Source: Acidobacteriota bacterium
GTDB taxonomy: Bacteria > Acidobacteriota > Thermoanaerobaculia > Gp7-AA8
Assembly: GCA_003223635.1 (NCBI GenBank)
Contig: QHVS01000046.1
Span: 1 to 42,896 of the forward strand
Direction of reading: 5' to 3'
DNA length: 42,896 nucleotides
This document shows, piece after piece, positions 10,860-38,848 of the stretch. The notes under the pieces were generated by a model. The model ran no database searches, was not told the origin of the DNA, and worked only from the letters and a program-made list of their open reading frames with translations. A program made the translations under genes and the position numbers. How positions within the stretch are numbered: the first letter of the stretch is position 1; the number at the start of each line of letters is the position of its first letter.

Positions 10860-11893
10860 CTCCCTGCCTGTTGGGCGACCCAGCGCACCATCAGCTCTTC
10901 GGCCCAATACTCGGCGCGCCACGGCGTGGCGCCGGCGATGAAGCCGGTGTGGCCACCGCGCGGCGTCACGCGGAATTCGACGGAGGGCGAAGCGGCCGCC
11001 CGCGCGCGGATCAGCACGTCGGCCGGCAGGAAGGGATCATCTTCGGCATTGATGCAGAGCGTGGGGATGGAGATGAAGCGAAGAAACGGCAGCGAACTGC
11101 TGCGGGTGTAGTAGTCCTCCGCGTCGCGGAAGCCATGGATCGGCGCGGTCGAAGCGTTGTCGAACTCGTAGAACGTCCGGGCCCGCATGGCCCCGGGCAC
11201 GTCGACTTTCGGTCGCGTTTCGGGGAATCGCTCCACCACGCTGAGCGTCTTGGCCCGCATGGTCTGGAAGAAGTGGGCGACGTAGAGGCGGCCCGCTCCG
11301 CGCTCCAGTTGCCTCGCTCCCGCGTCCAGATCGTACGGAACGGACATCGTCGCCGCGGCGATGACGGATCGCTGCTGCGGATGCTCGCCCAGCCATTTGA
11401 GCAGCGCGTTGCCGCCGAGAGAGACCCCGGCAGCCACCAGCGGCGTGTGCGGATCGCGTTCGGTGAGCGTGCGGATCAGAAAATCGAGATCGCCCGTCTC
11501 GCCGGAGTGATAGAGCCACGGCCGGCGATTCATCAGCATCTGCGACATCCGATTCGGATCACGGGCACAGGAGCGGAAATTCATCGCCGTTGCTGCGAAG
11601 CCGTATCGGGCGATGACGCTCAGCATGCCCTGAATGTAGACGGAGTAGGAGCTTCCTTCCAGGCCGTGCAGCAGAACGAAGCGCGCCGAGCGATTGGTCA
11701 CGCCCTGATCGAGGTGATCGACGACCAGATCGTCGTCGTCCGGCGTTCGCAGCACCTCACGGCGAAGGGCGACAGCGCGTCGCGGACGGGCCAGGCGCCC
11801 CCACACGGTCTGAGAGTGCGGGCCGGGGAGCCACCACGACGGGGAAAAGTTGTCGGTAGTCGGTTGTCTGTTGTCCGGGACGCTACTGCTCAT
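10856..11893 (-). CDS. Alpha/beta-fold hydrolase, YheT/ABHD1-3-like
   Basis: [11 protein letters not shown] (oxyanion region), nucleophile elbow [14 protein letters not shown] (Asp) and GGHTGF (His). ATG 11893 (MSSSVPDN...) overlaps the fabF stop by 11 nt. The ORF-track start 12022 lies inside fabF. Confidence 0.8.
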
Positions 11894-18366: not shown

Positions 18367-18370
<4 letters not shown>

Positions 18371-19233
18371 ATGCGAAGTCGACCGCGCTGGTGGTCATCG
18401 ATCTGCAGCGCGGCATCGTACAGCGTCAGACGGCGCCGCACTCGTCGCGCGACGTCGTCGATCGAGCGAAGAAGCTTGCGGACGCATTTCGCAAAGCAGG
18501 CGCGCTGGTCGTGCTGGTTCGAGTGACATACTCGCGCGACGATGCCGATCGTCTCAAGGCACCCACCGACGCGGCGGCGCCGGTCAGCGTTCCCCTGCCG
18601 CCGGACTTTGCCGACATCGTTCCGGAGCTCGGTCCGTTCGACGGCGATCTGGTGATCACCAAGCACCAGTGGGGAGCGTTCTACGGGACGGAGCTCGATC
18701 TGCAACTGCGCATCGTACAGCGTCAGACGGCGCCGCACTCGTCGCGCGACGTCGTCGATCGAGCGAAGAAGCTTGCGGACGCATTTCGCAAAGCAGGCGC
18801 GCTGGTCGTGCTGGTTCGAGTGACATACTCGCGCGACGATGCCGATCGTCTCAAGGCACCCACCGACGCGGCGGCGCCGGTCAGCGTTCCCCTGCCGCCG
18901 GACTTTGCCGACATCGTTCCGGAGCTCGGTCCGTTCGACGGCGATCTGGTGATCACCAAGCACCAGTGGGGAGCGTTCTACGGGACGGAGCTCGATCTGC
19001 AACTGCGGCGGCGTGGGATCCGCACCATCGTGCTCGCCGGAATCGCCACCAACTTCGGCGTGGAATCGACGGCGCGCGACGCCTGGGAGCGCAACTATGA
19101 GCTGGTCTTCGCCGAAGACGCCATGGCCGGGCTGAGCTCAGAGGCGCATCAGTTCGCAATCGGGACGATCTTTCCCAGAATCGGTCTGGTACGCTCGACA
19201 GATGCCATCACCGCCGCTCTCGGCGAATCGTAA
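18367..19233 (+). CDS. Isochorismatase-family (cysteine-hydrolase fold) protein carrying an internal 99-codon tandem duplication
   Basis: ALVVIDLQ (catalytic Asp region), [16 protein letters not shown] (Lys), [22 protein letters not shown] 18367 overlaps the AKR TGA (ATGA). 288 aa as written; 189 aa without the duplication, which is the usual family size. Confidence 0.8.
18414..19007. repeat. Perfect direct tandem duplication, 2 x 297 bp
   Basis: 18414-18710 and 18711-19007 are identical base for base on manual comparison. The antisense ORFs 18426-18662 and 18723-18959 in the track are also identical. Confidence 0.95.
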
Positions 19234-19801
19234 TCGGCTCCGACTGCGCACGCGCAGGCAGTGGCGATCGTGGTTGAAGCGAAATCACGCCAGGGAGTCG
19301 GAGGTGTGGCTCGTCTTCGCCAAACGGCACACCGGCAAAGCGTCGTTTCGGTACAGCGAAGCGGTGGAGGAGGCGCTCTGCTTCGGATGGATCGACACGA
19401 CCGTCAAGCGGCTCGACGACGAGCACTACACGCAACGCTTCACCCCTCGCTCCAACCTCCGGAATTGGTCGAAGATCAACCTGGAGCGATTCCGACGCAT
19501 GGTCGCTGAAGGTCGCATGACCGAAGCCGGACGGTCCAAGCTTCCGGCGGACGTCGCTCCGCCGCCGCGGCGACACGAGAGCGGCGATCCGATTCCCGCG
19601 TTCATCGCGCGCGGTATTGCGAACGATCCGGTTGCGCAGAAGAAATTCTCCGCACTCCCGGCGAGCTATCGTCGCGACTACGTCCGCTGGATCAGCGAAG
19701 CGAAACAACAGGAAACGCGAGAGCGACGGCTGAAAGAGGCCATTCGACGCCTGAAGTCGAACTGGAGGCGGGTCTACGATCCGTCGAGTGCTAAGAGCTA
19801 A
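19202..19801 (+). CDS. YdeI/OmpD-associated family protein
   Basis: QWRSWLKRNHARESEVWLVFAKRHTGKASFRYSEAVEEALCFGWIDTTVKRLDDEHYTQRFTPRSNLRNWSKIN...YRRDYVRWISEAKQQETRERRL. ATG 19202 overlaps the upstream gene by 32 nt, so the start is uncertain. Confidence 0.65.
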   Translation: MPSPPLSANRNRLRLRTRRQWRSWLKRNHARESEVWLVFAKRHTGKASFRYSEAVEEALCFGWIDTTVKRLDDEHYTQRFTPRSNLRNWSKINLERFRRMVAEGRMTEAGRSKLPADVAPPPRRHESGDPIPAFIARGIANDPVAQKKFSALPASYRRDYVRWISEAKQQETRERRLKEAIRRLKSNWRRVYDPSSAKS

Positions 19802-19808
19802 GAGCTGC

Positions 19809-22109
19809 CTAAGGCTGCGCTGAGGCGCGCCGGCGCGGGACGGAAGGCAACAACTTCAGAAAAACTCGATCGACACCGCCATACGCTGATTCGTTGGCCC
19901 GGCGCGTATAGGTGAGCAAGATGCCCTCGTTTGCCGACACAAGCCTGGGTTGTCGCTGACGATCTTGCGCGCGTGAAATGATTCGCCGCGGTTCTCCGAC
20001 CAAACCATCTTCGTTGAGGGTGAGCGCGTACAGGTCGACGTTGCCTGTCTGGCTTGTTTCGTCCCACGCGAGAACAGTTGTCGATCCTCTTGACGTCAGC
20101 GCTACCGATCCGTCGTACATTGTTGCGCTCATTGGCAGCACCTGCGGTTTTGAGATGGCATCTCCCGTGGGGCCGACCACGACCCACGCGAGAGAGTCCG
20201 ATCCTCTCCAGGCAACCACGTAATGCGAGCCTGCCCATGTGGCAGTCGCTTGAATGCAGTAGGTAGGAAGTTCAAACCTGTTCTTAGGAATCCCGTTCTC
20301 AACGAGTACGACATCGAGCGCTGATTCGCTTTTCCTATACAGCCCGACGCCATTTTTTGCCCATGCAACCAAGGCCTGTGAATTGCCCGCAGAGGCGATC
20401 GCTGCCCCGCGATTGCTCGTTCCGGTGGAGATCGTTGTCCCACCAGGATCGAGAAGCAACCCGCTCGCGGTGATCCGACTGGCCTGGATGCGGGCTGCAT
20501 CGATGTAACCTGAGAGATGGCCGGCCGTCCAAGCGACGACGAACTCAGACCCATCCCACGCCACATCCGGCGGGAATTGATAATGAATGTCATCATTCGA
20601 AATGAGCATCGGGTCGCCCAGCGGCAAACCGGTGATCGTCATGAGTCTGGCGCGAATCGAGTCAGGATCTGTTTCGCGCCAGACCAGAAGGACAACATTG
20701 CCGTTGGACGCAACGCGCGGCGTCAGCTGATGAGCATCTGAATCCGCGATTCGAATTCCGCGACCGTCAGGCAATTCGCCCGTCGCCAGCAGACGCGAGC
20801 CGAACACGATGGATTTCTTCTCGGAAGGGACAAACTCTTGCCAGGTAATGAAGAAGTCACTACCGACTGGGGTGATCGACGGAGACTCCTGATGTGTCGC
20901 GGAGCGCGCGAACTCAAATGCGGAAAATAGATCACCAGGGGCAGAAAAGCTGACGATGTTCCCCCAAAGGTCGACTCCCGCTCCCGGAGGCGTTCCTAGT
21001 TTCGGTACGTTGCGCATGTCGCGCCACGCAGCAAAATAGTTCGATCCGCTCGCGGCGACGGCCGCTCCGAAGGCGAATGTTTCTGCGAGGAGCTGAGTCC
21101 GCGCATCCTCGACGCGGACAGCGAACAAATGTCGTGCGCCACCGTCTTGCTGAAGAGGTGCACCGATCAGCGCGACCGCACCGTCGTTCCCAGAGGCGAT
21201 ATCTGCAATGAAACCGTCGCCTTGAAAAATCGTCCACGAAGAAGAAGTTCGGCCGCTATCGATTCGGCGGGCCTTCACCGACGACGTCGATCCACTCCCG
21301 CTCTTCCAGACAGCAACGTAAGATATGCGGTCGTACGTCAGTCGAAGCATGCCGTACACGCTTTCCACATCGACCCTGAATGGGGATTGTGTGCGCGCGT
21401 CGGCGCCGATCGGCACCACCAGAAGCTGGTTTGAAAACAGAGGTCCCACTGTCGTAACAAAGAGAAACCCTGTACCGTCGTTTGAAACGTCAAATTCAAA
21501 ACCGCCTGAATTCGTGATCACCAAGTCGCTTTTCAACACGTATCCATCGGGCGCAACGAGCGCTCCGAGAAACGTGTTTGGATGATTGCTGCTATTACCC
21601 ACGCGCCATGCGACAAGAAACTCGCGTCCGTTCCACGCGACGCGCGGATAAGGCGGCGGTATGCCGCCGGCCGGTCCAACTCCAGTCGCGTAGATCAAAA
21701 ACTCTTCCGACACTACGCCTTCCGGTGACACCCATCTTCCATACACGCCAGTCATGTCGGCGGAGCTGAGAAGATAGCGTCCGCCCCCGTACACGAGAGC
21801 CGTGAACGTCCGGTTGGTGTGCAAAGGAACAAAGAGGCTCGTGATGTCGCGACGTTCGCCAGTTGCTGAAAATCGCGCGACGTGAAGGTCGAAGTATTCG
21901 CGCGTTGGATTTGGCAAGCAGCAGCGCTGTTCCGGCCACACGCCGAGATAATCACGGCCATCGCTAGCCACGAGTGGTGGAGACTGCTCATATGCAGCCG
22001 CGCCGTAAATCGGGGCACTGACGGGAACCTCGTCAGTGGAGATCTGAGCTGCGGTTGAAATGGCCGAGAAGAGAAGCGCGCCAAGGAGAAAAACGGAGGT
22101 CCGGGACAT
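19809..22109 (-). CDS. Secreted repeat protein (about 14 units of ~50 aa; beta-propeller-like), unknown function
   Basis: Signal peptide MSRTSVFLLGALLFSAISTAAQ. Recurring unit ending in G-x-x-[FYV]-[LFV]-[VAL]-[AVT]-[WY]: DYLGVW, FTALVY, EFLVAW, GFLFVT, SYVAVW, AVALIG, NYFAAW, DFFITW, VVLLVW, EFVVAW, QALVAW, HYVVAW, TTVLAW, GILLTY. Lower GC than the flanks. Confidence 0.7.
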   Translation of the reverse strand: MSRTSVFLLGALLFSAISTAAQISTDEVPVSAPIYGAAAYEQSPPLVASDGRDYLGVWPEQRCCLPNPTREYFDLHVARFSATGERRDITSLFVPLHTNRTFTALVYGGGRYLLSSADMTGVYGRWVSPEGVVSEEFLIYATGVGPAGGIPPPYPRVAWNGREFLVAWRVGNSSNHPNTFLGALVAPDGYVLKSDLVITNSGGFEFDVSNDGTGFLFVTTVGPLFSNQLLVVPIGADARTQSPFRVDVESVYGMLRLTYDRISYVAVWKSGSGSTSSVKARRIDSGRTSSSWTIFQGDGFIADIASGNDGAVALIGAPLQQDGGARHLFAVRVEDARTQLLAETFAFGAAVAASGSNYFAAWRDMRNVPKLGTPPGAGVDLWGNIVSFSAPGDLFSAFEFARSATHQESPSITPVGSDFFITWQEFVPSEKKSIVFGSRLLATGELPDGRGIRIADSDAHQLTPRVASNGNVVLLVWRETDPDSIRARLMTITGLPLGDPMLISNDDIHYQFPPDVAWDGSEFVVAWTAGHLSGYIDAARIQASRITASGLLLDPGGTTISTGTSNRGAAIASAGNSQALVAWAKNGVGLYRKSESALDVVLVENGIPKNRFELPTYCIQATATWAGSHYVVAWRGSDSLAWVVVGPTGDAISKPQVLPMSATMYDGSVALTSRGSTTVLAWDETSQTGNVDLYALTLNEDGLVGEPRRIISRAQDRQRQPRLVSANEGILLTYTRRANESAYGGVDRVFLKLLPSVPRRRASAQP

Positions 22110-22230
22110 GGAGAGAGTGATCTTTCTTGATTTGTACGATGCAGAAGAGGCGATCGTCTACGAACGGAATTGATGAACCGGACGACGGAGCATCGCGCAT
22201 CACGAGGAAACGCGAGAGTGGGGCCCTACA

Positions 22231-22258
22231 GCTAACCGCTAACCGCTAACAGCTAAGA
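22231..22258. repeat. Tandem heptamer array GCTAACC GCTAACC GCTAACA GCTAAGA
   Basis: Read directly, in the divergent intergenic region between 22109 and 22300. In the register CGCTAAC the unit differs by 1 nt from the CGTTAAC unit of the hairpin at 23556-23620. Confidence 0.8.
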
Positions 22259-22299
22259 GCTTCTCGCCATCACGACATCGTCAGTCATCCGCGGCTCAA

Positions 22300-23562
22300 A
22301 TGTATCATCGCAGGCGAATGGCGTTCGAAGCCTTTCAAGAACGCGACTACCGCCTCTTCTGGACGTCGCAGTTCTTCTCCAACATCGGCTCATGGATGCA
22401 AGCGGTGGCGCAGGGATGGCTCGTCTATCACCTCACCGATTCACCGTTCCTTCTAGGCTTCGTCGGCTTCGCCAACTCCCTCCCCACGATTTTTCTGATG
22501 CTGCCGGGCGGCGTGGTGGCGGATTCGTTCGATCGGCGCCGTGTGATCAGCGCGTCGCAATGGGCGCAGGCGCTTTGCGCGCTCTTTCTCGCCGCGTCGA
22601 TTCGCACGCATCAGATCAGCACGTGGCAGATCTTCGTCGCGGCGATCGTGGTGGGGATCGCGGTTTCTTTCTCCGCCCCCGCGTACCAGGCCATGGTGGT
22701 CGACCTGCTCGACGACCGCTCGCGCCTCCCGAATGCGGTGGCCATGAACTCTCTGCAGTTCAATCTCTCGCGAGCCATCGGTCCGCTGCTGGCAGGCGTG
22801 ACGCTCTCCGCCTATGGCAGCTTCTGGTGCTTTTTCTTCAACGCCATTTCGTTTCTGCCGCTGATCTGGGTGCTGGGACGCCTGCGGGATCGTCAGCATC
22901 GGTCGGAGCGCGGGCCGATGGTGTCCCAGCTCGCCGAGGGATTCCGCTACGTCCTGCGCGACCGCGTCGTGCTGATCCTCCTGGCCATCGTCGGAGCGGC
23001 GAGCCTGTTCGGCTATCCCTATCTGAGCATCATGCCGATGATCGCCCGCTCACTCTTCACCGACGATGCGCGCGGCCTCGGTGTGCTGATGGGCGGCATC
23101 GGCGGCGGAGCGCTGGCCGGCTCCCTGGCTCTCTCGTTGCGCATGCCGTCGCGCCGCTGGATCGCGTCGATCATTCTCATTTCGCTGGTCATCTTCGGCG
23201 TCAGTCTGGTCGCAGTCGGCTACGTTCGCTCCCAAACGGCCATGACTTCGGTGCTCTTCGTCTGCGGCGCGGCGATGGTGGTCTGCGTGGCGCTGTGCAA
23301 TACATCGATCCAGCGGCGCGTCCCCGATGCCATGCGCGGCCGCGTGCTGAGCATGTATACGTTTGCCTTCTACGCCTTTCTGCCGTTCGGCAACCTGATC
23401 GCAGGGTTGATCGCCGAACACCGCGGATTGCCCATGACGATGTTCACGCTGGGAGGAGGATTGATCGTGTCGGCGGGAATCGCCTGGGTGGCAATTTGGG
23501 TGGAGCGATCGCGCCGGCACGCATCGGGATCATTGGAGGCGCGGGGAGAGGTCAACGGTTAA
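22300..23562 (+). CDS. MFS transporter (MFS_3 / EntS-like)
   Basis: ERDYRLFWTSQFFSNIGSWMQAVAQGWLVYHLTDSPFLLGFVGFANSLPTIFLMLPGGVVADSFDRRRV, with about 12 TM helices. Start is ATG 22300 or ATG 22318. Confidence 0.85.
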   Translation: MYHRRRMAFEAFQERDYRLFWTSQFFSNIGSWMQAVAQGWLVYHLTDSPFLLGFVGFANSLPTIFLMLPGGVVADSFDRRRVISASQWAQALCALFLAASIRTHQISTWQIFVAAIVVGIAVSFSAPAYQAMVVDLLDDRSRLPNAVAMNSLQFNLSRAIGPLLAGVTLSAYGSFWCFFFNAISFLPLIWVLGRLRDRQHRSERGPMVSQLAEGFRYVLRDRVVLILLAIVGAASLFGYPYLSIMPMIARSLFTDDARGLGVLMGGIGGGALAGSLALSLRMPSRRWIASIILISLVIFGVSLVAVGYVRSQTAMTSVLFVCGAAMVVCVALCNTSIQRRVPDAMRGRVLSMYTFAFYAFLPFGNLIAGLIAEHRGLPMTMFTLGGGLIVSAGIAWVAIWVERSRRHASGSLEARGEVNG

Positions 23563-23620
23563 CGGTTAACAGTTAACGGTGGCAGAGCCTCTGGCACCGT
23601 TAACCGTTAACCGTTAACCG
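23556..23620. terminator. Bidirectional hairpin between convergent genes, arms made of tandem AACGGTT / AACCGTT heptamers
   Basis: 23556-23587 pairs with 23589-23620 (32 positions, 2 mismatches at 23571 and 23582). The MFS stop TAA (23560-23562) lies inside the left arm; the HemQ stop (23622-23624) is 2 nt from the right arm. No flanking T-run. Confidence 0.65.
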
Positions 23621-23621
23621 C

Positions 23622-24356
23622 TCACACGAGCGAATCCAGAATTTCCTCGACTGTCGAGCGGCGGCAGGTATACATCGGCGTGTCGCGCACGGTGAACTTT
23701 GACGACTCGGTCTCGCGCAGCTCCTGCACCAGATCGAGAAACTCGGCGGGGGAATCGGCCTCGAAGGCCACCACGAAGTCCTGATCGTCCAGCCCGAATG
23801 AGTAGGTCGTATTGATCTTCACCCGCGGGTACTTGTGCCCGATGGCGATGTGTTCGTTCATGATGCGCTGTCTTTCGGACATCGGCAGCAGATACCAGTC
23901 CCGGGTCTTCACGAACGGGTAGACAAAGAGGAATGGCTTCTTTCCCGGCACGATGCGCGTCCGCCGCCCTTCCTGTCCTTCGTGCACGTGTTCGTCGACA
24001 TACTGCGAATGCTTGGTCATCGAAAGATAGGAGTGCGGGATGTCGAGATATCGGCCCAGGAGCGACTTGTTGATGTCGGAAGCCATCTGCTGGAACGGCT
24101 CGAGGTCATAGCTGATGCGCCACAGCATGAAGTCGACGGTCGATTTCAATCCGAGCGTGGAGTAGGGGAGAAGGATCATCCGTCCTTCGTAACGCTTCAA
24201 CAGTTCAGCGAACTGGCGCTTTGCCTCGCTTTTGAACTCTGCACTCTCGCGCCGCACGGCGCGATCTGCTTTGAAGAACATGAAGTTGACGAACTGGCGC
24301 CGGATCGCTGCGTCCGCCTCGCGCGCGGACTCGGTTTTGACTTCCGTGATGGTCAT
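23622..24356 (-). CDS. Chlorite-dismutase-family protein, HemQ/ChdC-like (coproheme decarboxylase)
   Basis: FVNFMFFKADRAVRR...ILLPYSTLGLKSTVDFMLWRIS...YLSMTKHSQYV...PFLFVYPFVKTRDWYLLPMSERQRIMNEHIAIGHKYPRVKINTTYSFGLDDQDFVVAFEADSPAEFLDLVQELRETESSKFT. Confidence 0.8.
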   Translation of the reverse strand: MTITEVKTESAREADAAIRRQFVNFMFFKADRAVRRESAEFKSEAKRQFAELLKRYEGRMILLPYSTLGLKSTVDFMLWRISYDLEPFQQMASDINKSLLGRYLDIPHSYLSMTKHSQYVDEHVHEGQEGRRTRIVPGKKPFLFVYPFVKTRDWYLLPMSERQRIMNEHIAIGHKYPRVKINTTYSFGLDDQDFVVAFEADSPAEFLDLVQELRETESSKFTVRDTPMYTCRRSTVEEILDSLV

Positions 24357-30384: not shown

Positions 30385-30957
30385 CTACTCCCACTTCCTG
30401 GCGGCAGCAGCGACCCGGGCGTCCCGCTCAGTCCGGTAGTCCAAGGCGGTATAGATCCACTGCTCGTAGCTGTCCGATCCGTTGAACGCCAGAAAGCTCT
30501 TTCCGACCTTGCTGGGCCTCACGCCGACGAATGGTCCGCCTGCATAATCCTTCATCGGGACGCCGGGAATGGGGGGTACGACAGCCGGCTGCACCCCCGG
30601 CACCGACCGGGGAGTGCTGACCGCCGACTGAGGGATGATCAGCCAGTCGACTTCTCCTGTCAGGGGATCGATGTAGCCGTCCTTTGGTCCCCGCAGGAAT
30701 CGCGGCTGTCGAGCGTCCGCGAGTTGGTTCATGCTCACCGGCCAGGTCTTGTGCTTGTCCTGAAAGGCGCTGATAGCGATGGCGTACTGCCTCATGATGA
30801 ACAGGGTCTGCTTGTCGCGATCGCGCTGCAGAATGGCGGACCACTGCCGGGGGACGGTGTAGGACACGAAGATCATCACGATCGTCAGCAGGACGATCAT
30901 GCCGGCGAGAGTGAATCCCCTCTGGCTTCGACTACCAGTCCTTGTAGGCGATGCCAT
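30385..30957 (-). CDS. Pilin-like protein with a degenerate prepilin N-terminus lacking Glu+5 (minor pseudopilin candidate)
   Basis: MASPTRTGSRSQRG|FTLAGMIVLLTIVMIFV: the Gly-Phe junction and hydrophobic helix are present, but position +5 is Gly. Start ATG 30957 is assumed (in-frame ATG 30990 and an unverified start at the ORF-track boundary 31053 are also possible). Overlaps the upstream gene by 26 nt. Confidence 0.55.
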   Translation of the reverse strand: MASPTRTGSRSQRGFTLAGMIVLLTIVMIFVSYTVPRQWSAILQRDRDKQTLFIMRQYAIAISAFQDKHKTWPVSMNQLADARQPRFLRGPKDGYIDPLTGEVDWLIIPQSAVSTPRSVPGVQPAVVPPIPGVPMKDYAGGPFVGVRPSKVGKSFLAFNGSDSYEQWIYTALDYRTERDARVAAAARKWE

Positions 30958-31441
30958 CGAGACCGACTCCGGTTGCGGTGCTGCGTACATCGATGATGCC
31001 GGGCGTTGCCGCCGCTTCCGGCGCGTTCGGATCGGTGGCCACCGTTGGATCATTCGGATCGGTGCTGGCCTGCACCTCTTCCCAATTGGCAGCCCCGGTC
31101 ATCGGATCCTTCGGGAGGTTGCGAAGGTAATGGTCCTGCTTGAGCGTGAGCAAGCTGTCCGGATACTTCTGCTTGTCGGCGAAGTAGTCATCGATGGCCT
31201 TGCGCATCTCGAAGAGATCGTGCTTGAGCGCCGCCTCGCGCGCCTTCTGCTGCGCGTATCGAACATTGGAAATGGCCACTCCGGCCAGGATGCCGATGAT
31301 GGTGACGACCACGATCAGCTCGATCAGCGTGAAGCCACGGCTCTTCGAACGATGAACGATGAACGATGAACGATGAACGTTCACCGGCCGTGCTGTGTTG
31401 ATCGTTCCGCGTTCATCGTTCATCGTTTTATTTCTCACCAT
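30932..31441 (-). CDS. GspG-like type II secretion / type IV pseudopilin (prepilin-type N-terminal cleavage/methylation domain)
   Basis: SRG|FTLIELIVVVTIIGILAGVAISNV, then QKAREAALKHDLFEMRKAIDDYF...LRNLPKDPMTG (GspG-like). No Cys. The start is ambiguous (ATG 31441, ATG 31423 or GTG 31384), and all candidates lie within or upstream of the heptamer hairpin. Confidence 0.8.
   Translation of the reverse strand: MVRNKTMNDERGTINTARPVNVHRSSFIVHRSKSRGFTLIELIVVVTIIGILAGVAISNVRYAQQKAREAALKHDLFEMRKAIDDYFADKQKYPDSLLTLKQDHYLRNLPKDPMTGAANWEEVQASTDPNDPTVATDPNAPEAAATPGIIDVRSTATGVGLDGIAYKDW
31346..31428. repeat. Heptamer-repeat hairpin, GAACGAT family, copy 1
   Basis: GAACGAT x4.7 (31347-31379), 18-nt loop, then complementary arm. 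31348-31378 pairs with 31397-31427 with three mismatched positions (31367, 31366 and 31375). 31401-31424 is identical to 37201-37224. Confidence 0.85.
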
Positions 31442-31929
31442 TCGTTGTAATGCGTCCTTCCATCCAGCGCGACGGCGGTTGATTTCGACCGCACTTCGAA
31501 GACGTTGTCGCCGCTGCGGATGGAGCTCGTGGGGTCATCGTTGTCGGACAGCGTGTCCCACTCGCTTTTGTTGGTCATCGGATCGATCAGATCGCGCTGC
31601 CGCAGCAGGCGCACGCTCTTGCCCGTGTTCAACTCGATTGGTTTGGTCAGCTCTTCCAGATTCTTGGGATAGTCGCGCTGGCCGAAGTCGGGTGGCTTCT
31701 TGATGTTGTTCGGGGGGTTGGCCATCCGCAGCTCATGATATCGATCGATCGCGTCGGTGAGTTTACGCAGCCGCTCGTGGAGCTCGAGCTCCTTCTGCCG
31801 GCGGATGCCGAAGCTGACCACCGGCACAGCCACCGACGCCAGAATTCCGATGATCGCCACGACGGTGATCAGCTCCGCGATCGAGAATCCCGACTCGCTG
31901 CTCGCACCCCGCGACCCGCCGTTTCTCAT
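31435..31929 (-). CDS. GspG-like pilin/pseudopilin (first and probably major subunit gene)
   Basis: MRNGGSRGASSESG|FSIAELITVVAIIGILASVAV with Glu+5. No Cys. C-terminus VRSKSTAVALDGRTHYNEW is paralogous to VRSTATGVGLDGIAYKDW of the next gene. ATG 31929 overlaps the secretin TGA (ATGA). Confidence 0.8.
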   Translation of the reverse strand: MRNGGSRGASSESGFSIAELITVVAIIGILASVAVPVVSFGIRRQKELELHERLRKLTDAIDRYHELRMANPPNNIKKPPDFGQRDYPKNLEELTKPIELNTGKSVRLLRQRDLIDPMTNKSEWDTLSDNDDPTSSIRSGDNVFEVRSKSTAVALDGRTHYNEW

Positions 31930-34397
31930 TCCACCTTGGCGCGACCTCCGGAGACGGCGGAGGCGACCACTTCGCCGCGGCCGTTCCTCAGGTCGGGGTT
32001 CTCCATCACCAGGTACGTCTCGCCGCTGATGCCACCCCGGACGCGCAGCGCGGCGATCTCGCCGCCGCTGTTGAACGCCAGGGGCTTGCCGTCGGATGAG
32101 CTGATCCTGATCGTTCCTTTGTCACGATCGATGATCACCGCCGGGGGCGTCTTCGGATCGAGCTTGATGGCCGGTCCGAACATGACCTCGCTGACATCGA
32201 TGGTGCGCGGATCGTAGTGCAGCATCAGTTGCGTCGTGGTCAGACCATCGAGATCCATCCCCACCACGTCCCACAGCTTCTCTTCGCCCGACTTGACCAT
32301 CAGTTTCACTGGCTGCGGCGCGATTCGCGGCGAGAGATTGCTGCTCGTGTCGACCGCCGCCGACTCGGTGCTGGCAGCCAGCGCCACATGCGACGCGCCG
32401 CTTGCCGGCGTCTGCAACTGCGCCTCCGGCTGGACGGGTGGCGGGGGCGGGGGCTGATTGTGGAACGGATCGCTGGGCGCAGTTCCCAGTGGTGGAGGCT
32501 GAGTTGGAACCGGACGCATCACATTGCCCGGTTCGCCGTCCGGCGCCAACGGCAAACCGGTTGCCGGATCGCGGCCGCTGAACTGAGTGGCGCCGCGCGG
32601 TGCGGCGAAGGGATCGGTGCCCGATTGCGATTCGAGCCGAGGAGAGAGACCGCGGAACGAAAGATTGCTCTGCGTTCCCACCCACAACGGTGCCAGATCA
32701 TCCTCGGTGATGTCCGGAATGCGGATGATGTGCGGCGTCATGGTCAGGATCAGATCCGTGCGCAAAGTGCCCTTGTGATTGGCCGTGAACAGCCGGCCGA
32801 TCACCGGAAGATCGCCCAGGAACGGCGTCTTCTGATTGGCATCTGTGTCGTTCTGCTGAATGAGACCGGCCAGGAAGTTCGTCTCGCCGTCTTTCAGACG
32901 GATCGTCGACTCGATCGTGCGCGTGGCAAAGGTCGGCTGCGGAGCCTGGCCGGCCACACCCGGAGCATCAGGCCCCTGGTTCGACACTTCGACGGTGAGC
33001 TTGAGCGTCACCTCGCGGTTGTGGTGGACGCGCGGCTCAATGGAAACCTTGATGCCCACGTCCTGGTACTGATACGACGTCACGGGCGCAAACGTGCCCG
33101 ATGTGGTCGTGCTCACGCTGGTGAAGGTGGACACCGGCACGGGGATGCGATTGCCGATATGGAGCGTCGCCTTCTCCCCCTCGGAGATCCGAAGTTCGGG
33201 GTTGGCCAGCAGTTGACTGTTGCTGATCGATTTCAGCGCAGCGTACGCCGCGTTCGGAATGGAGAAGCTGATCAATCCGCTGTTGATCCTTCGCAGGTCG
33301 TTGATCGTGCCGGCCGCCAGCGGGCTCGTTTTGCCGCTGGCGTCCGCCGTCATCGGCTGGATGATGCCGGGACTGGCCGTGCTGTATCCATTGACGACGA
33401 GGCCGAGGTCGCGGTTCTTGCTCAGATCGATCTGCAGGAGCTCGACGTCGACGACCACTTCCGCCTTGGCTTTGTCGTTGGCCTGAATGATCTTCTCAGC
33501 GATGCGCACTTTGTCCGCTGTGTCGCGGATGGTGATGGCATTGAGCGCTTTGAGGGGAAAGACGTTTCTGGCCTCAATCATGGTCCGGACGACGTTGGTG
33601 ACCTGCTCGGCGTCGCCGTTGGAGAGGTAGAAGGTGCGGATGACGAGGTCTTCGTAGTCGCGGCGAGCCTGCGGGTTGTCCGGGACGATGATGATGGTCC
33701 GCTCGTCGAGAACTTTGTAGAAGTGATTCGCGGCCTGCATCACGCGCTCCAGGGCCTGCTGGGCCGTGACGTCGCGCAGCTCGATGGAGATGCGATCGTC
33801 CTTGACCGCCTGATCGAAGAGAACGTTGATGCCGAACGCGTTGCCCAGCGCGCGATAGATATCCTTCACCGGCGTTTCGCGCGGGAAGGAAAGAGAGATT
33901 GGCTGCTGAGACGCCGGATTGAGTTGTGGCGGCTGGGCCTTGGTGATGCCCCTTGCCGATACCCGCCGCTTGAGCTCATCGATCGTGATGTTCTCCGTCG
34001 CGGCGCGGTTGGCTTCCTGGATCATGTTGACCGCTTTCTCCAGCTCCACGGCGGCGAACTGATTCGTTGAATCGAGCTTCACCGTGACTTCCAACTCCGT
34101 CGCGGCCAGTTGCGCCAGGCGAGTCTGTTCAGCGCCCTTGGCCGCCAGCGCCGCCGCACGAAGCGTTTTGCCCTTCTCGAAGTGGACGCGTGAAGCCTCG
34201 AGCCTGGCCCGGTTGAGGTTCATGCGATAACGCATGTTGTCGGGATCGATCTCCAGCGCCTTCTCGTATTGAATGACGGCCTCGTCCCAGTTTTTCTGCC
34301 GTTCGGCCGTGAGGCCCCTCTGATACGCGTTGAAGCTCACGCAGCCGGCGGTCAGTGTGAGAGCGAGCACCAGGCTCGTTGTTTTCAGTCGATTCAT
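31926..34397 (-). CDS. pilQ: Secretin (PilQ/GspD family) lipoprotein with N-terminal TPR and a C-terminal Pro-rich linker plus cohesin-like domain
   Basis: Lipobox LALTLTAGC, TPR-like WDEAVIQYEKALEIDPDN. Secretin core LLANPELRISEGEKATLHIGNRIPV...YQYQDVGIKVSIEPRV...IRLKDGETNFLAGLIQQ...TPFLGDLPVIGRLF...DLILTMTPHIIR. About 260 extra C-terminal residues follow. Confidence 0.9.
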   Translation of the reverse strand: MNRLKTTSLVLALTLTAGCVSFNAYQRGLTAERQKNWDEAVIQYEKALEIDPDNMRYRMNLNRARLEASRVHFEKGKTLRAAALAAKGAEQTRLAQLAATELEVTVKLDSTNQFAAVELEKAVNMIQEANRAATENITIDELKRRVSARGITKAQPPQLNPASQQPISLSFPRETPVKDIYRALGNAFGINVLFDQAVKDDRISIELRDVTAQQALERVMQAANHFYKVLDERTIIIVPDNPQARRDYEDLVIRTFYLSNGDAEQVTNVVRTMIEARNVFPLKALNAITIRDTADKVRIAEKIIQANDKAKAEVVVDVELLQIDLSKNRDLGLVVNGYSTASPGIIQPMTADASGKTSPLAAGTINDLRRINSGLISFSIPNAAYAALKSISNSQLLANPELRISEGEKATLHIGNRIPVPVSTFTSVSTTTSGTFAPVTSYQYQDVGIKVSIEPRVHHNREVTLKLTVEVSNQGPDAPGVAGQAPQPTFATRTIESTIRLKDGETNFLAGLIQQNDTDANQKTPFLGDLPVIGRLFTANHKGTLRTDLILTMTPHIIRIPDITEDDLAPLWVGTQSNLSFRGLSPRLESQSGTDPFAAPRGATQFSGRDPATGLPLAPDGEPGNVMRPVPTQPPPLGTAPSDPFHNQPPPPPPVQPEAQLQTPASGASHVALAASTESAAVDTSSNLSPRIAPQPVKLMVKSGEEKLWDVVGMDLDGLTTTQLMLHYDPRTIDVSEVMFGPAIKLDPKTPPAVIIDRDKGTIRISSSDGKPLAFNSGGEIAALRVRGGISGETYLVMENPDLRNGRGEVVASAVSGGRAKVE

Positions 34398-34404
34398 TCT
34401 GTAG

Positions 34405-34472
34405 GTCCTGTGTCCTGTGTCCTGTGTCCTGTGTCCTCAGAATTCAGGACGCAGGACTCAGGACGCAGGACT
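34405..34472. repeat. Heptamer-repeat hairpin, GTCCTGT family
   Basis: GTCCTGT x4 plus GTCCTCA (34405-34439), loop containing GAATTC, then CAGGAC-N x4 (34445-34472). Four stem blocks: three 6-bp GTCCTG/CAGGAC helices plus an innermost 5-bp GTCCT/AGGAC helix (34433-34437 with 34446-34450), separated by single T-G or T-T positions. Confidence 0.85.
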
Positions 34473-34503
34473 CTCATCTTTTGACGCTCGTCCAAAATAA
34501 ATG

Positions 34504-35070
34504 TCACTGTCCCAAGGGAATACGCGATTTCACGTCGGGCGGAAAACCAACGTAGCCGATCTCCACCGATTCGATGCCGATGGTGCGAAGAATGAATTTT
34601 CCGTCGATCGTTTCTCCTACCCGGATGTTCACGATCTGGCCGCTGCCCGAAAACGTAGCGATCGGATTCTCCGGCCGCCCGAATGTGCCGATGTACTTAT
34701 AGTTGAACGGCGGCGGTTGCGGCGCCGCAGGCGGGGGCGGAGGTTGCGGAACCACCGGCTGCACCACGACCGCGACGGGTGGCGGGGGCGGGGGCGGCGG
34801 GGGTCGTGGCGGCTCCTTGTAGGCGAACAGGTTCCGCTGGCTCTTGTAGCTGCCGCTCGGCACTTCCAGCCATTCGTCGTGGACGCGCGGCACGCCTGCT
34901 GCCGTGACGCCGATGGTGCGGCCGGAGGTGCCGGTGGGCGGGCGGGTGGTGATCGCCGCATCGTCGCGGGCGTGCGAGCTCTGCGTCGCCGCGAAGGTAT
35001 AGATGGCGAAGAGGGCGACGATGATCAACCCGATCGTGGTCCAGGTTTTCCAGCTCATCCAATCCATCAC
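34504..35070 (-). CDS. PilP-like pilus assembly protein
   Basis: N-terminal TM anchor (WTTIGLIIVALFAIYTF), long poly-Pro linker (PPRPPPPPPPPPVAVV...PQPPPPPAAPQPPP), and a C-terminal small beta domain (YKYIGTFGRPENPIATFSGSGQIVNIRVGETIDGKFILRTIGIESVEI). Sits between pilO and the secretin. Start is GTG 35070 or ATG 35067. Confidence 0.6.
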   Translation of the reverse strand: MMDWMSWKTWTTIGLIIVALFAIYTFAATQSSHARDDAAITTRPPTGTSGRTIGVTAAGVPRVHDEWLEVPSGSYKSQRNLFAYKEPPRPPPPPPPPPVAVVVQPVVPQPPPPPAAPQPPPFNYKYIGTFGRPENPIATFSGSGQIVNIRVGETIDGKFILRTIGIESVEIGYVGFPPDVKSRIPLGQ

Positions 35071-36250: not shown

Positions 36251-37122
36251 GCGGTCAACTCCGCCTCATACGCGCCGATGCCTTCCGGGACGCGTTCAGC
36301 GAAATCGCTCAGGGCTACGGTGCGCACCGGCGCACCGAATTCCGTGGCGATCGCCGAGGAGAGGGCGCCGTCGATGCGGTTGCCGGCCAGATAGCAGCTC
36401 TCGATCGATTCCGTCCGCAGCGTGTCGCGCAGATAGCTCGCCGACAGTTTGATTTCCTGGTCCAGCGTCCGCTGGCCATTCAGATTGCGCGACCGGATGA
36501 AAAGAGGCTGGTTGCCGCGGAACGCCCCGGTGGTGAAGTCATGCTCGCGCACGAAGAAGAAGATGCGGTCGCCGGTGGTGGCCGGCTCGCGCACGGTAAT
36601 CGCGTTCCAGATGTTGAGGCCCATCGGTTCGACCAGCACGATCTCGATCCCAGCTTCGGCAAACAGGCGCTCGATGCCGGCCAGCGTCTTTTCCATGGCG
36701 CTGACGGCCAGGACTCTGGCTGGAGCAGGAGTGCGGGACAGCACCTCGAAGGCCAGGCGCAGCATCGCTGGATCGATCGGCATCGTCCGCTTCAGGCTCC
36801 ATCGAACCATCTGATTGGCTTCGTCCTTCGCCTCCGGGAGCGACGGAAGTTCCAGGATGTTCATGCGGAACCACGAGTCCGGGAGGAGCATGGAGGCCTT
36901 GTCCCACCGGCCGCTCTCGACGCGCAGACGGCGCAGGACGTCGGCGATGGCTGCCGGGTTGACCAGATCCGGTGTGACCACGCCGGGCGCGAACGTCGCC
37001 GCCCCGAGGCGGTAGCTCTTGGCCTGCACGATCTGCGGATCCTTGCGCCCGCGACTGAGCCGCGCGTGGATCAGCGAGTCAGAATCGAGAACGATGACGT
37101 CGGGAGGGAAGGATCGGGCCAT
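36229..37122 (-). CDS. pilM: PilM-like (actin-fold) pilus assembly protein
   Basis: Placed immediately upstream of pilN/O/P. VIVLDSDSLIHARL...LLPDSWFRMNILELPSLPEAKDEANQMVRWSLKRTMP...LAVSAMEKTLAGIERLFAEAGIEIVLVEP fits PilM_2-type layout. ATG 37122 preferred over TTG 37128. Confidence 0.7.
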   Translation of the reverse strand: MARSFPPDVIVLDSDSLIHARLSRGRKDPQIVQAKSYRLGAATFAPGVVTPDLVNPAAIADVLRRLRVESGRWDKASMLLPDSWFRMNILELPSLPEAKDEANQMVRWSLKRTMPIDPAMLRLAFEVLSRTPAPARVLAVSAMEKTLAGIERLFAEAGIEIVLVEPMGLNIWNAITVREPATTGDRIFFFVREHDFTTGAFRGNQPLFIRSRNLNGQRTLDQEIKLSASYLRDTLRTESIESCYLAGNRIDGALSSAIATEFGAPVRTVALSDFAERVPEGIGAYEAELTACTGVFA

Positions 37123-37126
37123 GGTC

Positions 37127-37224
37127 AAACGATGAACGATGAACGATGAACGATGAACAGAGCTCGACGGCTGAGAGTTCGTTGTCTCAGTTCATCGTTC
37201 ATCGTTCCGCGTTCATCGTTCATC
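37127..37224. repeat. Heptamer-repeat hairpin, GAACGAT family, copy 2
   Basis: (A/G)AACGAT x4.7 (37127-37158), ~31-nt spacer, then complementary GTTCATC units (37190-37224). 37128-37158 pairs with 37190-37220 with one 2-nt mismatch. Fills the pilB-pilM gap. Confidence 0.9.
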
Positions 37225-37225
37225 T

Positions 37226-38848
37226 TTACTCCACGAACGTAACCTTGTTGATTTCGCGCAGCGTGGTGCGTCCTTCCATCACCTTCTTCAGCGCCGATTC
37301 GCGCAGAAAGGTCATCCCTTCTTCTTTCGCCGCTTTCTTGATTTCTGACGCCGGACGCCGATCGAGAATCATTCCGCGAATACGATCCGAGAGGTCGAGA
37401 AGTTCCGCGATGGCCGAGCGGCCGTGGAATCCTGTTCCGTTGCACTCCAGGCAGCCCGCGCCCTCGGAGAAAAGCTGGTCACGGTATTCCGCCGGATTCA
37501 GGCCCGACTCGATCAGGAACGCGTCGGGATATCGCACCTCGCGCTTGCACTCCTGACAGATCTTCCGCACGAGGCGCTGGGCCAGCACGCAGTTGAGCGC
37601 CGACACGAAGTTATAGAGATCGACTTTCATGTTGAGAAATCGGCCGAGGACGTCGACCACGTTGTTGGCATGCACGGTGGTGAACACCAGGTGACCGGTG
37701 AGCGCCGACTGCACCGCGATCTGCGCGGTCTCTTCGTCGCGGATCTCGCCGACCATGATCTTGTCCGGATCGTGCCGGAGGATCGAGCGCAGTCCGCGGG
37801 CGAACGTCAGCCCCTTCTTCTCGTTCACCGGAATCTGGGTGATGCCCCGGAGCTGGTACTCCACCGGATCCTCGATGGTGATGATCTTGTCCTCCGGGCT
37901 CTGGATCTCGGAAAGCGCGGCATAGAGTGTGGTCGTTTTGCCCGAGCCGGTGGGGCCGGTGACCAGCACCATGCCGTATGGCTCTTTGATGAATTTGCGG
38001 AACTTCACCAGCATGTCGTCATCGAAGCCGAGGACGTCGAGGCGGAGGTTTTTGAACTCCTTGTTCATCGACTCCTTGTCCAGGATGCGGATGACGGCAT
38101 CTTCGCCATGGGCGCTGGGGATGATGGAGACGCGGAAGTCGATGGTGCGGCCGGTGACGCGCAGCTTGAAGCGGCCGTCTTGCGGCACGCGCTTCTCGGC
38201 AATGTCGAGCTCCGACATGACCTTGATGCGGCTGATGATCGTGGAGTGATGGCGCTTGTCGATCGGGTCGAGCGCTTCGTACAGCACGCCGTCGATGCGG
38301 TACTTCACCACCACTTCGTTATCGCGCGTCTCGATGTGAATGTCCGACGCTCGCCGCTGGATGGCGTTGAAGACGATCGAGTCGACCAGTTTGATGATGG
38401 GCGACGACTCCTGCTGCGTGATGGAGTCGATCGTCAGGGTCTCTTCGCCCTCGTCATCCTCGCCGACAAGCTGCAGTCGGAAGCCTTCCGTTGCCTCATC
38501 GAGGACGCGCTGTGTCGATTCCGATTTCTCCAGCTTGTCGCGAATGGCCGCCGGTGAGGCCACCTTCACTTTCAGCGGCGCGCCGAGGAGGAGCTCCAGC
38601 TCGTCGAGCTTGAGGACGTCGGTGGGATCGCCCACCACCACTGAGATGTAGCCGTTCTCTCGCCTCTCGGGCAAGAACTGGTAGCGGATCATCAGCTCCA
38701 GCGGCACGTCGCGAAAAAGCTGGTGGTCGACTTGAAAATGCTCCAGATCGACGTAAGGGAAGCCGTACTGCTCCGCCAGGCGTTGCGCGCGTGCAGCCTC
38801 GCCGGTCGGATCGGCAGCCTTGTACAGCGAGCGGGGATCAGTAGCCAT
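37226..38848 (-). CDS. pilB: Type IV pilus assembly / type II secretion ATPase (GspE/PilB family)
   Basis: N-terminal T2SSE_N-like domain, Walker A VLVTGPTGSGKTTTLYAAL, Asp box ITIEDPVEY, Walker B DKIMVGEIRDEETA, His box TGHLVFTTVHANN, and the tetracysteine CQECK...CLECNGTG. Confidence 0.95.
   Translation of the reverse strand: MATDPRSLYKAADPTGEAARAQRLAEQYGFPYVDLEHFQVDHQLFRDVPLELMIRYQFLPERRENGYISVVVGDPTDVLKLDELELLLGAPLKVKVASPAAIRDKLEKSESTQRVLDEATEGFRLQLVGEDDEGEETLTIDSITQQESSPIIKLVDSIVFNAIQRRASDIHIETRDNEVVVKYRIDGVLYEALDPIDKRHHSTIISRIKVMSELDIAEKRVPQDGRFKLRVTGRTIDFRVSIIPSAHGEDAVIRILDKESMNKEFKNLRLDVLGFDDDMLVKFRKFIKEPYGMVLVTGPTGSGKTTTLYAALSEIQSPEDKIITIEDPVEYQLRGITQIPVNEKKGLTFARGLRSILRHDPDKIMVGEIRDEETAQIAVQSALTGHLVFTTVHANNVVDVLGRFLNMKVDLYNFVSALNCVLAQRLVRKICQECKREVRYPDAFLIESGLNPAEYRDQLFSEGAGCLECNGTGFHGRSAIAELLDLSDRIRGMILDRRPASEIKKAAKEEGMTFLRESALKKVMEGRTTLREINKVTFVE

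Follow-up and report, generated by a model that had tools for sequence, protein, structure and literature searches.

The stretch of DNA analyzed here (hereafter the window: 42,896 nt, contig QHVS01000046.1 of assembly GCA_003223635.1, an Acidobacteriota bacterium labelled Thermoanaerobaculia, Gp7-AA8) carries an inverted repeat of the heptamer GAACGAT at the junction between two consecutive pseudopilin genes on its minus strand. The hairpin formed by the two arms is real and very stable, and it falls within the part of pseudopilin 2, a secretion-pilus subunit gene, that encodes the cleaved-off leader. On balance, we favour the view that it is a fixed, translated member of a family of heptad hairpins, which would supply the start codon of pseudopilin 2 and make its translation dependent on that of the upstream gene, pseudopilin 1. 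The parts of the junction are as follows (coordinates are those of the window).

31435-31929, minus strand: pseudopilin 1, the upstream gene (open reading frame, ORF, and Pfam).
31428-31441, minus strand: junction with the ATGGTGA overlap and the A-rich spacer GAAAUAA, which pairs weakly with the last unit of the 3' arm.
31397-31427, minus strand: 5' arm (in the mRNA), AACGAUG AACGAUG AACGCGG AACGAUC AAC, containing ATG 31423-31421 and the variant unit GAACGCG.
31379-31396, minus strand: loop of about 18 nt with GTG 31384-31382, its sequence varying freely among relatives.
31347-31379, minus strand: 3' arm, 4.7 perfect copies of GUUCAUC (100% matches), coding for VHRSSFIVHRS.
31334-31336, minus strand: Gly(-1) codon of the prepilin cleavage site G/FTLIEL (N_methyl match), invariant in 119 of 120 homologues.
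30932-31333, minus strand: mature pseudopilin 2, 133 aa plus the stop codon (ORF and Pfam).

The complementary arms recovered by a repeat search of the window (31348-31378 and 31397-31427; 31 nt each, 90% complementarity, 18 nt spacing) were resolved by Tandem Repeats Finder (TRF) into 4.7 copies of GAACGAT at 31347-31379, all of them perfect, and 4.4 copies at 79% at 31397-31427. Direct comparison of the arms bore out the pairing and the three mismatched positions (31366-31367 and 31375) reported in an initial annotation of the sequence, except that the supposed 2-nt bulge at 31366-31367 is a 2x2 internal mismatch (AU opposite CG), which leaves the period unbroken and exists because one unit is substituted to GAACGCG. 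Folding of a 141-nt RNA with the hairpin gave -54.6 kcal/mol, against -37.6 +/- 3.4 for shuffled sequences (z = -5.0; 0 of 200 dinucleotide shuffles as good), and the whole window held no Rfam match at the gathering score. The repeat is not an artefact of assembly, since the identical sequence is present in 11 other independent assemblies. Along the minus strand, the mRNA crosses the junction as ...AAC GAA TGG TGA GAAATAAAACG ATG AAC GAT GAA CGC GGA ACG ATC AAC, enters the loop and continues as GTT CAT CGT TCA TCG TTC ATC GTT CAT CGT TCG AAG AGC CGT GGC / TTC ACG CTG ATC GAG (the slash marking the cleavage site). The upper stem begins 7 nt past the pseudopilin 1 stop (TGA 31437-31435), in agreement with the earlier estimate of within about 10 nt. 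The C-terminus of pseudopilin 1 (...NEW and stop, AACGAATGGTGA) itself resembles a GAACGAT-type unit and pairs with the last unit of the 3' arm.

Pfam N_methyl matched residues 31-57 of the 169-aa pseudopilin 2 ORF (E = 1.4e-9), and a prepilin (class III) motif is present (...SKSRG/FTLIELIVVVTIIGIL), with Gly(-1), Phe(+1), Glu(+5) and a hydrophobic N-terminal helix. The surrounding minus-strand operon resembles those of type II secretion systems and type IV pili (T2SS/T4P) and comprises, by Pfam, a pilC-like gene, a pilB-like ATPase, four small genes, a TPR-secretin, three pseudopilins and an M16 peptidase; no prepilin peptidase gene was identified in the window.

Four in-frame starts are available to pseudopilin 2, namely ATG 31441, GTG 31438 (the second codon of ATGGTGA), ATG 31423 and GTG 31384, and no ATG, GTG or TTG lies between the 3' arm and the Gly(-1) codon. 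The initial annotation had read the codons, the Gly codon and three of these starts correctly, and it overlooked GTG 31438 in calling the three the only ones. Its further statement that the hairpin covers every start holds as geometry but not as energetics: when the opening energy was computed for positions -20 to +12 around each of 13 starts, ATG 31423 ranked first (25.1 kcal/mol) and the pilM start, also beside a hairpin, second (23.2 kcal/mol), with GTG 31384 at 15.9 kcal/mol and ATG 31441 the lowest of all (10.2 kcal/mol). ATG 31423 is the sole start conserved across all GAACGAT lineages; GTG 31384 was considered as a general start and rejected, as it was found only in the lineage of the window and of the related locus L001 (related loci are given L numbers throughout). 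Gene callers split on the start in otherwise identical loci, some starting at ATG 31441 (169 aa) and others at ATG 31423 (163 aa). The ATGGTGA junction also occurs in L009, which has no hairpin, and in L224.

We reason that translation of pseudopilin 2 would begin at ATG 31423 or at the overlapping ATG 31441, that the ribosome would pass both arms and the loop in frame, and that the resulting leader of 30-36 aa (MNDERGTINTARPVNVHRSSFIVHRSKSRG) would be cut by prepilin peptidase at G/F; because the leader is discarded there, the mature protein would be unaffected. The arrangement has the geometry of start-site masking, with the stop at 31437-31435, the stem from 31427, the ATG at 31423 and the stem base within a ribosome footprint of the upstream stop. 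Since ATG 31423 is placed in a stem of about 31 bp so shortly past the pseudopilin 1 stop, pseudopilin 2 would be made mainly by ribosomes finishing pseudopilin 1, which on leaving that gene would melt the base of the stem; in the opening-energy calculation, a register-shifted hairpin still forms with a ribosome at the pseudopilin 1 stop. Strict translational coupling of this kind would damp the output of pseudopilin 2 relative to pseudopilin 1, and selection on the reading frame would hold the repeat number constant, leaving no switch.

That ribosomes probably read through the hairpin is suggested by the coding properties of the arrays. Seven and three are coprime, and therefore any heptamer array offers the same seven codons in each frame; (GTTCATC)n has no stop in any of them, and (GAACGAT)n carries both ATG and TGA, a perfect 5' arm reading ATG AAC GAT GAA CGA TGA. 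In the frame of ATG 31423 the variant GAACGCG changes CGA UGA to CGC GGA, by which the only in-frame TGA is lost and the out-of-frame TGAs stay. Parallel stop-removing variants were found in other arrays: GGAATTA to GGAATGA (TAG to GAG) in L144 and L148, GTTGACC to GTTGGCA (TGA to TGG) in the pilC-pilB hairpins of L003 and L005, and GTCCTGA to GTCCTGC in the hairpin ahead of the secretin gene of the window. Seven unrelated heptamer arrays occupy the junction between the two pseudopilins (five of them found by tblastn with the mature protein only), and all are open and in frame from just past the pseudopilin 1 stop. In L132, L134 and L135 the hairpins are built of octamers, with TAG in all frames, and downstream of them come a separate AGGAG-type Shine-Dalgarno (SD) sequence and, ten codons ahead of the cleavage site, an ATG or GTG. 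The open in-frame arrays, the removal of stops and leader lengths in multiples of three (below) thus support one of the alternatives raised in the initial annotation, that the repeat is translated into an atypically long leader.

A search for homologues of pseudopilin 2 returned about 1,570 at E <= 1e-5, and the leaders of the best 120 clusters were surveyed. Classical leaders of 7-21 aa (e.g., MVKRNSQRG/F) account for 63 clusters, leaders that read through a GAACGAT hairpin (MNDERGTMN...VHRSSFIVHRS...G/F) for 42, and other long leaders, several with different 7-residue periodicities, for the remaining 15; exactly 11 periodic residues are coded in 22 of the 42 GAACGAT-type clusters. The GAACGAT hairpin was located in the syntenic DNA of L001, L003, L004, L005, L011 and L136. 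A scan of metagenomes yielded at least six close relatives. Across five lineages with 76-91% identity in the mature protein, the 3' arm keeps 4.6-4.7 units with 31 of 32 nt identical, and L001, L003, L004, L005 and L136 agree at all of the first 22 positions of the 5' arm; taken together, the arms are identical at 53 of 54 nt, as compared with 45-61% at the adjacent 4-fold sites of the mature coding sequence (in the four more distant lineages). The loops show no similarity between lineages (17 to about 90 nt), and the leader counted from the arm ATG measures 90, 96, 93, 165 and 90 nt in the five lineages, always a multiple of 3.

Hairpin-free relatives have stop-start distances of 0-10 nt, and one of them (L009) reads TGGTGA-ACCGGGAGTCCCCA-GTG AAA CGA..., which amounts to an SD followed by a start codon and a leader of 10 aa. 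Most likely, as far as sequence comparison can tell, the pseudopilin 2 copy replaced an ancestral SD and start of this sort and now provides the start codon. Related operons hold hairpins of yet other units at the same junctions. In L224 (pseudopilin 1 82% identical) the entire leader (MVKNRDPRPAPRDPRQRG) is encoded in frame by about 4.5 units of (CGCGACC)n (8489-8545), a one-armed array with no hairpin partner.

The length of the junction is constant among strains. Ten contigs from different samples and assemblers were picked by their exact pseudopilin 1 protein, and one more at 96% identity and the window itself bring the set to 12; as the choice was made through pseudopilin 1, it carries no bias toward an intact pseudopilin 2 frame. 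The distance from the pseudopilin 1 stop to the Phe codon is 101 nt in all 12 sequences, and the differences among them amount to three loop variants and one arm variant, each a single-nucleotide polymorphism (SNP). The pilB-pilM hairpin is likewise length-invariant in L212 and L213, and the secretin hairpin in L212, L213, L215 and L222. The length variants encountered all keep the frame: differences of +/-21 nt (three units) between members of 90% clusters, a 48-nt block that P0006 carries three times, and a 75-nt insertion in the loop of L005. No out-of-frame or leaderless pseudopilin 2 was found among the 120 homologue clusters and all fetched loci. A close relative has a 50-nt module (the 5' arm and half of the loop) in three copies in L225 (1378-1640) and in two in L226 and L227; the copies lie upstream of the proximal ATG, and every upstream one makes up an ORF of 13 codons, with 8 nt left between its end and the ATG that follows. 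The module count reflects a difference between samples, or possibly an assembly ambiguity.

The element is one copy of a lineage-wide family of inverted heptamer arrays, with about 4.5 units per arm, in Acidobacteriota labelled Thermoanaerobaculia. The window contains four such hairpins, three of them within the T2SS/T4P-like operon, and those outside the pseudopilin junction, together with the reading frames around them, are listed below.

23551-23625, no strand assigned: (GGTTAAC)n hairpin between convergent MFS and chlorite-dismutase-like genes.
34405-34471, minus strand: (GTCCTGY)n hairpin, its arms written (GUCCUGM)n / (AGGACAC)n as RNA, ending 8 nt ahead of the secretin ATG.
34394-34507, minus strand: spacer upstream of the secretin gene, containing an ORF that overlaps the upstream stop at its start (GTGA) and the secretin ATG 34397 at its end (ATGA).
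37128-37224, minus strand: sister hairpin between pilB and pilM, (GAACGAT)n with the GAACGCG variant (TRF and repeat search).
ATG 37223 to TGA 37127-37125, minus strand: ORF of 32 codons in the pilB-pilM spacer, beginning 3 nt past the stop of pilB and ending 2 nt short of the pilM ATG 37122.

The GGTTAAC unit has TAA in every frame and an untranslated context, and a TAA-bearing unit at convergent gene ends fits such a setting. The 14-mer GAACGATGAACGAT (at most one mismatch) occurs at 9 sites in the window versus 0.01 expected. Arrays of at least three units number five at period 7 and none at periods 5, 6 and 8-12, with none in shuffled sequences; every array of the window sits between genes or in the pseudopilin 2 leader, and the period-7 excess and mainly intergenic placement are those of heptanucleotide long simple sequence repeats (long SSRs; the STRR or LSSR class). 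The related loci hold 17 arrays at period 7, as against 7, 1, 4 and 3 at periods 4, 5, 6 and 8, and none at 9-12. Within the clade, the heptad hairpins occupy short spacers between co-directional, translationally coupled genes. Three one-armed intergenic arrays were also seen in the window: (GTTGTCG)n at 11849-11875, after a ketoacyl-synthase gene; (GCTAAGA)n at 19790-19830, at convergent gene ends; and (ACMGCTA)n at 22228-22261, in a divergent region.

A scan of species-representative genomes with the 18-mer AACGATGAACGATGAACG matched more than 120 stretches, and the figures that follow are from the 120 listed. Acidobacteriota contributed 51, Bacteroidota 29 and Planctomycetota 13, with several other phyla making up the rest, such that the GAACGAT unit is present in at least 10 phyla; the arrays have a median length of 4.0 units (interquartile range 3.3-4.6), and an inverted partner array accompanies 36 of the 51 acidobacterial loci. 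In one Thermoanaerobaculia metagenome-assembled genome (MAG; L016, about 2780-2990), a GATGAAC hairpin is nested in a second heptamer hairpin, (GGATTTT)n/(AATCCAA)n. Some contigs begin or end inside GAACGAT arrays (L082:1-123, the ends of L223 and L029, and the start of L053); the array of L082 has at least 17 units, far above the usual 4, and arrays of this kind break short-read assemblies. Transposition like that of MITEs (miniature inverted-repeat transposable elements) was considered and set aside: there are no target-site duplications and no termini beyond the arrays, and the two GAACGAT copies have loops that bear no relation to each other.

The sister hairpin between pilB and pilM has counterparts in relatives. 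The pilB-pilM spacers of the window, L001, L003, L224 and L005 are 101-109 nt long and each has a hairpin, built respectively of GAACGAT, GAAYGCA, GAAAGCA, GAAGTTC and AAATTTC units; in L004, L009 and L011, the stop-start spacing is 0-1 nt. In the aligned loci (window 37117-37228, L001:4238-4355, L003:4091-4200, L224:2708-2821 and L005:4236-4346) GAA/UUC is invariant every 7 nt, and at the four remaining positions of the unit replacement has been concerted, affecting every unit of both arms. Two-sided changes affect 24 of 40 pairs, with 89.8% of cells paired, a result matched by 0 of 500 shuffles and set against 35-52% paired in slid controls. Hence, pairing has been kept through complete, concerted replacement of the unit in both arms. 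That the unit of pseudopilin 2 was retained where that of pilB-pilM turned over may reflect an additional constraint, namely that its peptide stay a basic, non-hydrophobic leader.

In the window, L001, L003 and L224, relay ORFs of 32-34 codons start between -3 and +5 nt relative to the pilB stop and end 1-3 nt ahead of the pilM ATG, with a chance probability under segment-wise shuffling of 0.03-0.04 for the pilB-pilM spacers of the window, L001 and L224. From these sequences, the idea that such ORFs relay ribosomes across the hairpins is suggestive.

Several considerations weigh against a translated, coupling hairpin. At 6 of 10 junctions the relay-ORF test is weak (null 0.3-0.8), because the flanks supply a start and a stop and GC-rich spacers seldom hold stops; in the same vein, a GC content of 62% makes long open frames commonplace. 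The variant GAACGCG also occurs in copies from other phyla, and in both arms, so that it may be a co-opted trait of the family and not a local adaptation. Opening energies of 16-22 kcal/mol are common across this GC-rich operon, which makes 25 high but not extreme, and ATG 31441 is easily opened; were it the real start, the hairpin would hinder elongation, not initiation. Conservation of the arms could partly stem from homogenisation (by slippage or gene conversion) rather than from selection. Lastly, consensus sequences from metagenomes conceal minor length variants.

The explanation that best survives beside our own, though we deem it unlikely, is that of a selfish or neutral repeat with no regulatory role, produced through slippage and template switching or propagated in the form of small palindromic elements, and tolerated where it does no harm (in a cleaved leader, or in stop-start spacers, provided that the frame and a bridging ORF are kept). 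It would suit the variation in presence, absence and unit identity among orthologous junctions, the distribution of the GAACGAT unit over phyla, the nested copies and module duplications, the unconstrained loop peptide, and the leader arrays of L224, L133 and L148 that have no complementary partner; a filter for frame-preserving insertions would by itself account for the open frames and the stop-removing variants. It is less at ease with arms frozen in sequence and length while adjacent 4-fold sites are near saturation, with the narrow distribution of array lengths, and with the pairing of the sister hairpin that survived full turnover of its unit, for which structural selection or a dedicated homogenising mechanism would be needed.

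A role in RNA processing or stability appears improbable as the principal explanation, albeit it is compatible with translational coupling. Here the hairpin would be an RNase III site or a protective 3'-end structure that splits the operon transcript, so that the pseudopilin 1 segment outlives the minor-pilin segment. Repetitive extragenic palindromic (REP) sequences reportedly stabilise upstream mRNA (Newbury et al. 1987). In favour of such a role are a perfect duplex of more than 20 bp, hairpins placed directly after stop codons at three junctions of one operon, and a pairing conserved by covariation. A precedent for cleavage is found in the hmw heptamer-SSR hairpin of Haemophilus influenzae, which is cut by RNase III (PMC12721329). 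Nevertheless, a cut inside the hairpin would part the start of pseudopilin 2 from its body, which is hard to square with a frame so strictly kept.

The initial annotation had proposed a contingency locus, in which slipped-strand gain or loss of one 7-nt unit toggles pseudopilin 2 ON and OFF, a notion to which we attach very little probability. Its premise is sound: 4.7 perfect units separate every in-frame start from the Gly codon and the pilin body, and one unit more or less would shift the frame; moreover, unit number does change over evolution (the three-unit differences within 90% clusters, the unit turnover in the sister hairpin), and some contigs break within arrays. The heterogeneity of +/-7 nt that such a switch predicts was looked for in related strains and was absent, unit number being invariant across the strains and close relatives examined. 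The 12 strain-level junctions, chosen independently of the pseudopilin 2 frame, are of equal length, the five diverged lineages have equal unit counts, and every variant among the homologues preserves the frame; neither repeat-number polymorphism among these strains nor a pair of ON and OFF alleles, by which contingency loci are recognized, was observed. The 5' arm, besides, is interrupted and has at most two perfect units, and the tract is short relative to the at least 11 units given for natural hmw loci (PMC12721329). A low-frequency subpopulation differing by +/-7 nt is possible.

An intrinsic terminator or classical attenuator after the major subunit gene, as also suggested in the initial annotation, or a role at the DNA level (a cruciform, or a protein-binding heptad array), is scarcely credible: the stem is very stable, on the antisense strand it is followed by TTTTATTTCT, and the invariant GAA/UUC heptad skeleton could act as a protein-binding register, but on the mRNA strand the stem is followed by CGAAGAGCCG without a U-run, the terminator scan makes no call at 31347-31427 or at any other of the four window hairpins, termination is implausible within an ORF open in all lineages, and a DNA-level role leaves the preservation of the frame unexplained.

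Returning to the translated, coupling hairpin, we tentatively extend it into a broader proposal, that the heptad hairpins of Acidobacteriota, and perhaps those of other phyla, constitute a class of intercistronic palindromes that are translated and have so far gone undescribed. Taken jointly, the properties of this possible class would be pairs of inverted 7-nt arrays on a GAAnnnn/nnnnUUC skeleton that colonise the stop-start junctions of coupled operons, translatability (as a relay ORF or an in-frame leader) through stop-removing variants, and concerted replacement of the unit in both arms. Should the proposal be true, the copy at pseudopilin 2 would have been exapted, contributing the start codon and most of a cleavable signal-peptide leader. 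Our searches of the literature, incomplete in coverage, for the GAACGAT-type repeat, for Acidobacteria or Thermoanaerobaculia with heptamer hairpins and for a link between heptamer repeats and translational coupling returned nothing specific, and the family is apparently undescribed in such form.

The results do away with a claim of phase variation, attractive but unsupported, for an uncultured soil acidobacterium. They indicate that a repeat hairpin can live within a coding region by using the disposable leader of a prepilin, which is also a warning to annotators (163 versus 169 aa), and they suggest how insertions between translationally coupled genes become tolerated. A family with conserved architecture and sequence turnover gives, furthermore, a testable handle on the over-representation of 7-nt repeats in bacterial genomes.

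Two other repeats of the window deserve mention. At 18398-19007, a 297-bp tandem duplication (2.1 copies, 99% identity) lies inside an isochorismatase-domain ORF (18367-19233) that has two Pfam-matched stretches, and it represents either an in-frame duplication of 99 aa or an assembly artefact. A cluster of palindromes at 10181-10331 (GCGGGGAGAGGG / CCCTCTCCCCGC) is REP-like in appearance and unrelated to the heptamer family.

Among known systems, the class III signal peptides of type IVb pilins have leaders of 15-30 aa, and that of pseudopilin 2 is similarly long, basic and hydrophilic, with Gly(-1), then F/M, and Glu(+5). It differs in that its length comes from an inserted repeat hairpin, in a protein that resembles T2SS pseudopilins and whose orthologues have leaders of 7-20 aa. 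Coupling by start-masking hairpins is known from the MS2 phage coat gene with its replicase and lysis genes, from Escherichia coli rpmI-rplT and from the atp operon. As in these systems, the downstream start lies in a stem, the base of which would here be opened by the ribosome of the upstream cistron; their stems, however, consist of unique sequence paired with upstream coding RNA, whereas the stem described here is self-contained and is itself an apparently translated repeat.

REPs have one conserved sequence per genome, a GTAG/CGTC tag, a cognate REP-associated tyrosine transposase (RAYT) and no internal periodicity, and they are extragenic; their proposed roles are said to include mRNA stabilisation and modulation of translation near stop codons (Liang, Rudd and Deutscher 2015). 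The REPs and bacterial interspersed mosaic elements (BIMEs) of enterobacteria and pseudomonads (PMC3733652) are short, multi-copy, imperfect palindromes (20-40 nt) in intercistronic and convergent spacers, to which the heptad hairpins bear some likeness. The heptad hairpins differ in having arms made of heptamer arrays, many coexisting unit sequences and one coding copy: the window has four hairpins in 43 kb, two with a common unit, the pseudopilin 2 copy is inside an ORF, and no GTAG/CGTC tag was found at the ends of the hairpin arms, which read AACGATG.../...CATCGTT.

Heptamer SSRs are over-represented and intergenic, typically of about 4 units, sometimes inverted and of unknown function (PMC4692102, PMC4679880); examples are the cyanobacterial STRR, TAACTGA of Beggiatoaceae and GGGAATC of Xanthomonas (PMC4679880, PMC4692102; Mrazek 2007 cited there). 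The likeness extends to over-represented intergenic arrays of about 4 units that often end just upstream of start codons, to their spread across phyla and to occasional inverted pairs. Those repeats are mostly direct arrays with one or a few units per genome, whereas the acidobacterial rule, among the matches listed, is the inverted pair, with unit turnover and compensation at orthologous sites and with arrays kept translatable.

The nearest mechanistic precedent is the heptamer hairpin of hmw with RNase III: the (ATCTTTC)n heptamer SSR of H. influenzae hmw1A/hmw2A forms a 5'-UTR hairpin that is processed by RNase III (PMC12721329). The two have in common a transcribed 7-nt tandem repeat upstream of a surface-structure gene and a long RNA hairpin, on whose structure hmw expression depends. 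The hmw repeat number is highly variable (at least 11 units) and drives phase variation, its partner arm is a non-repeat, G-rich region, and the element is untranslated; in the acidobacterial junction, the repeat number is fixed and two repeat arms of about 4.5 units each lie inside an ORF.

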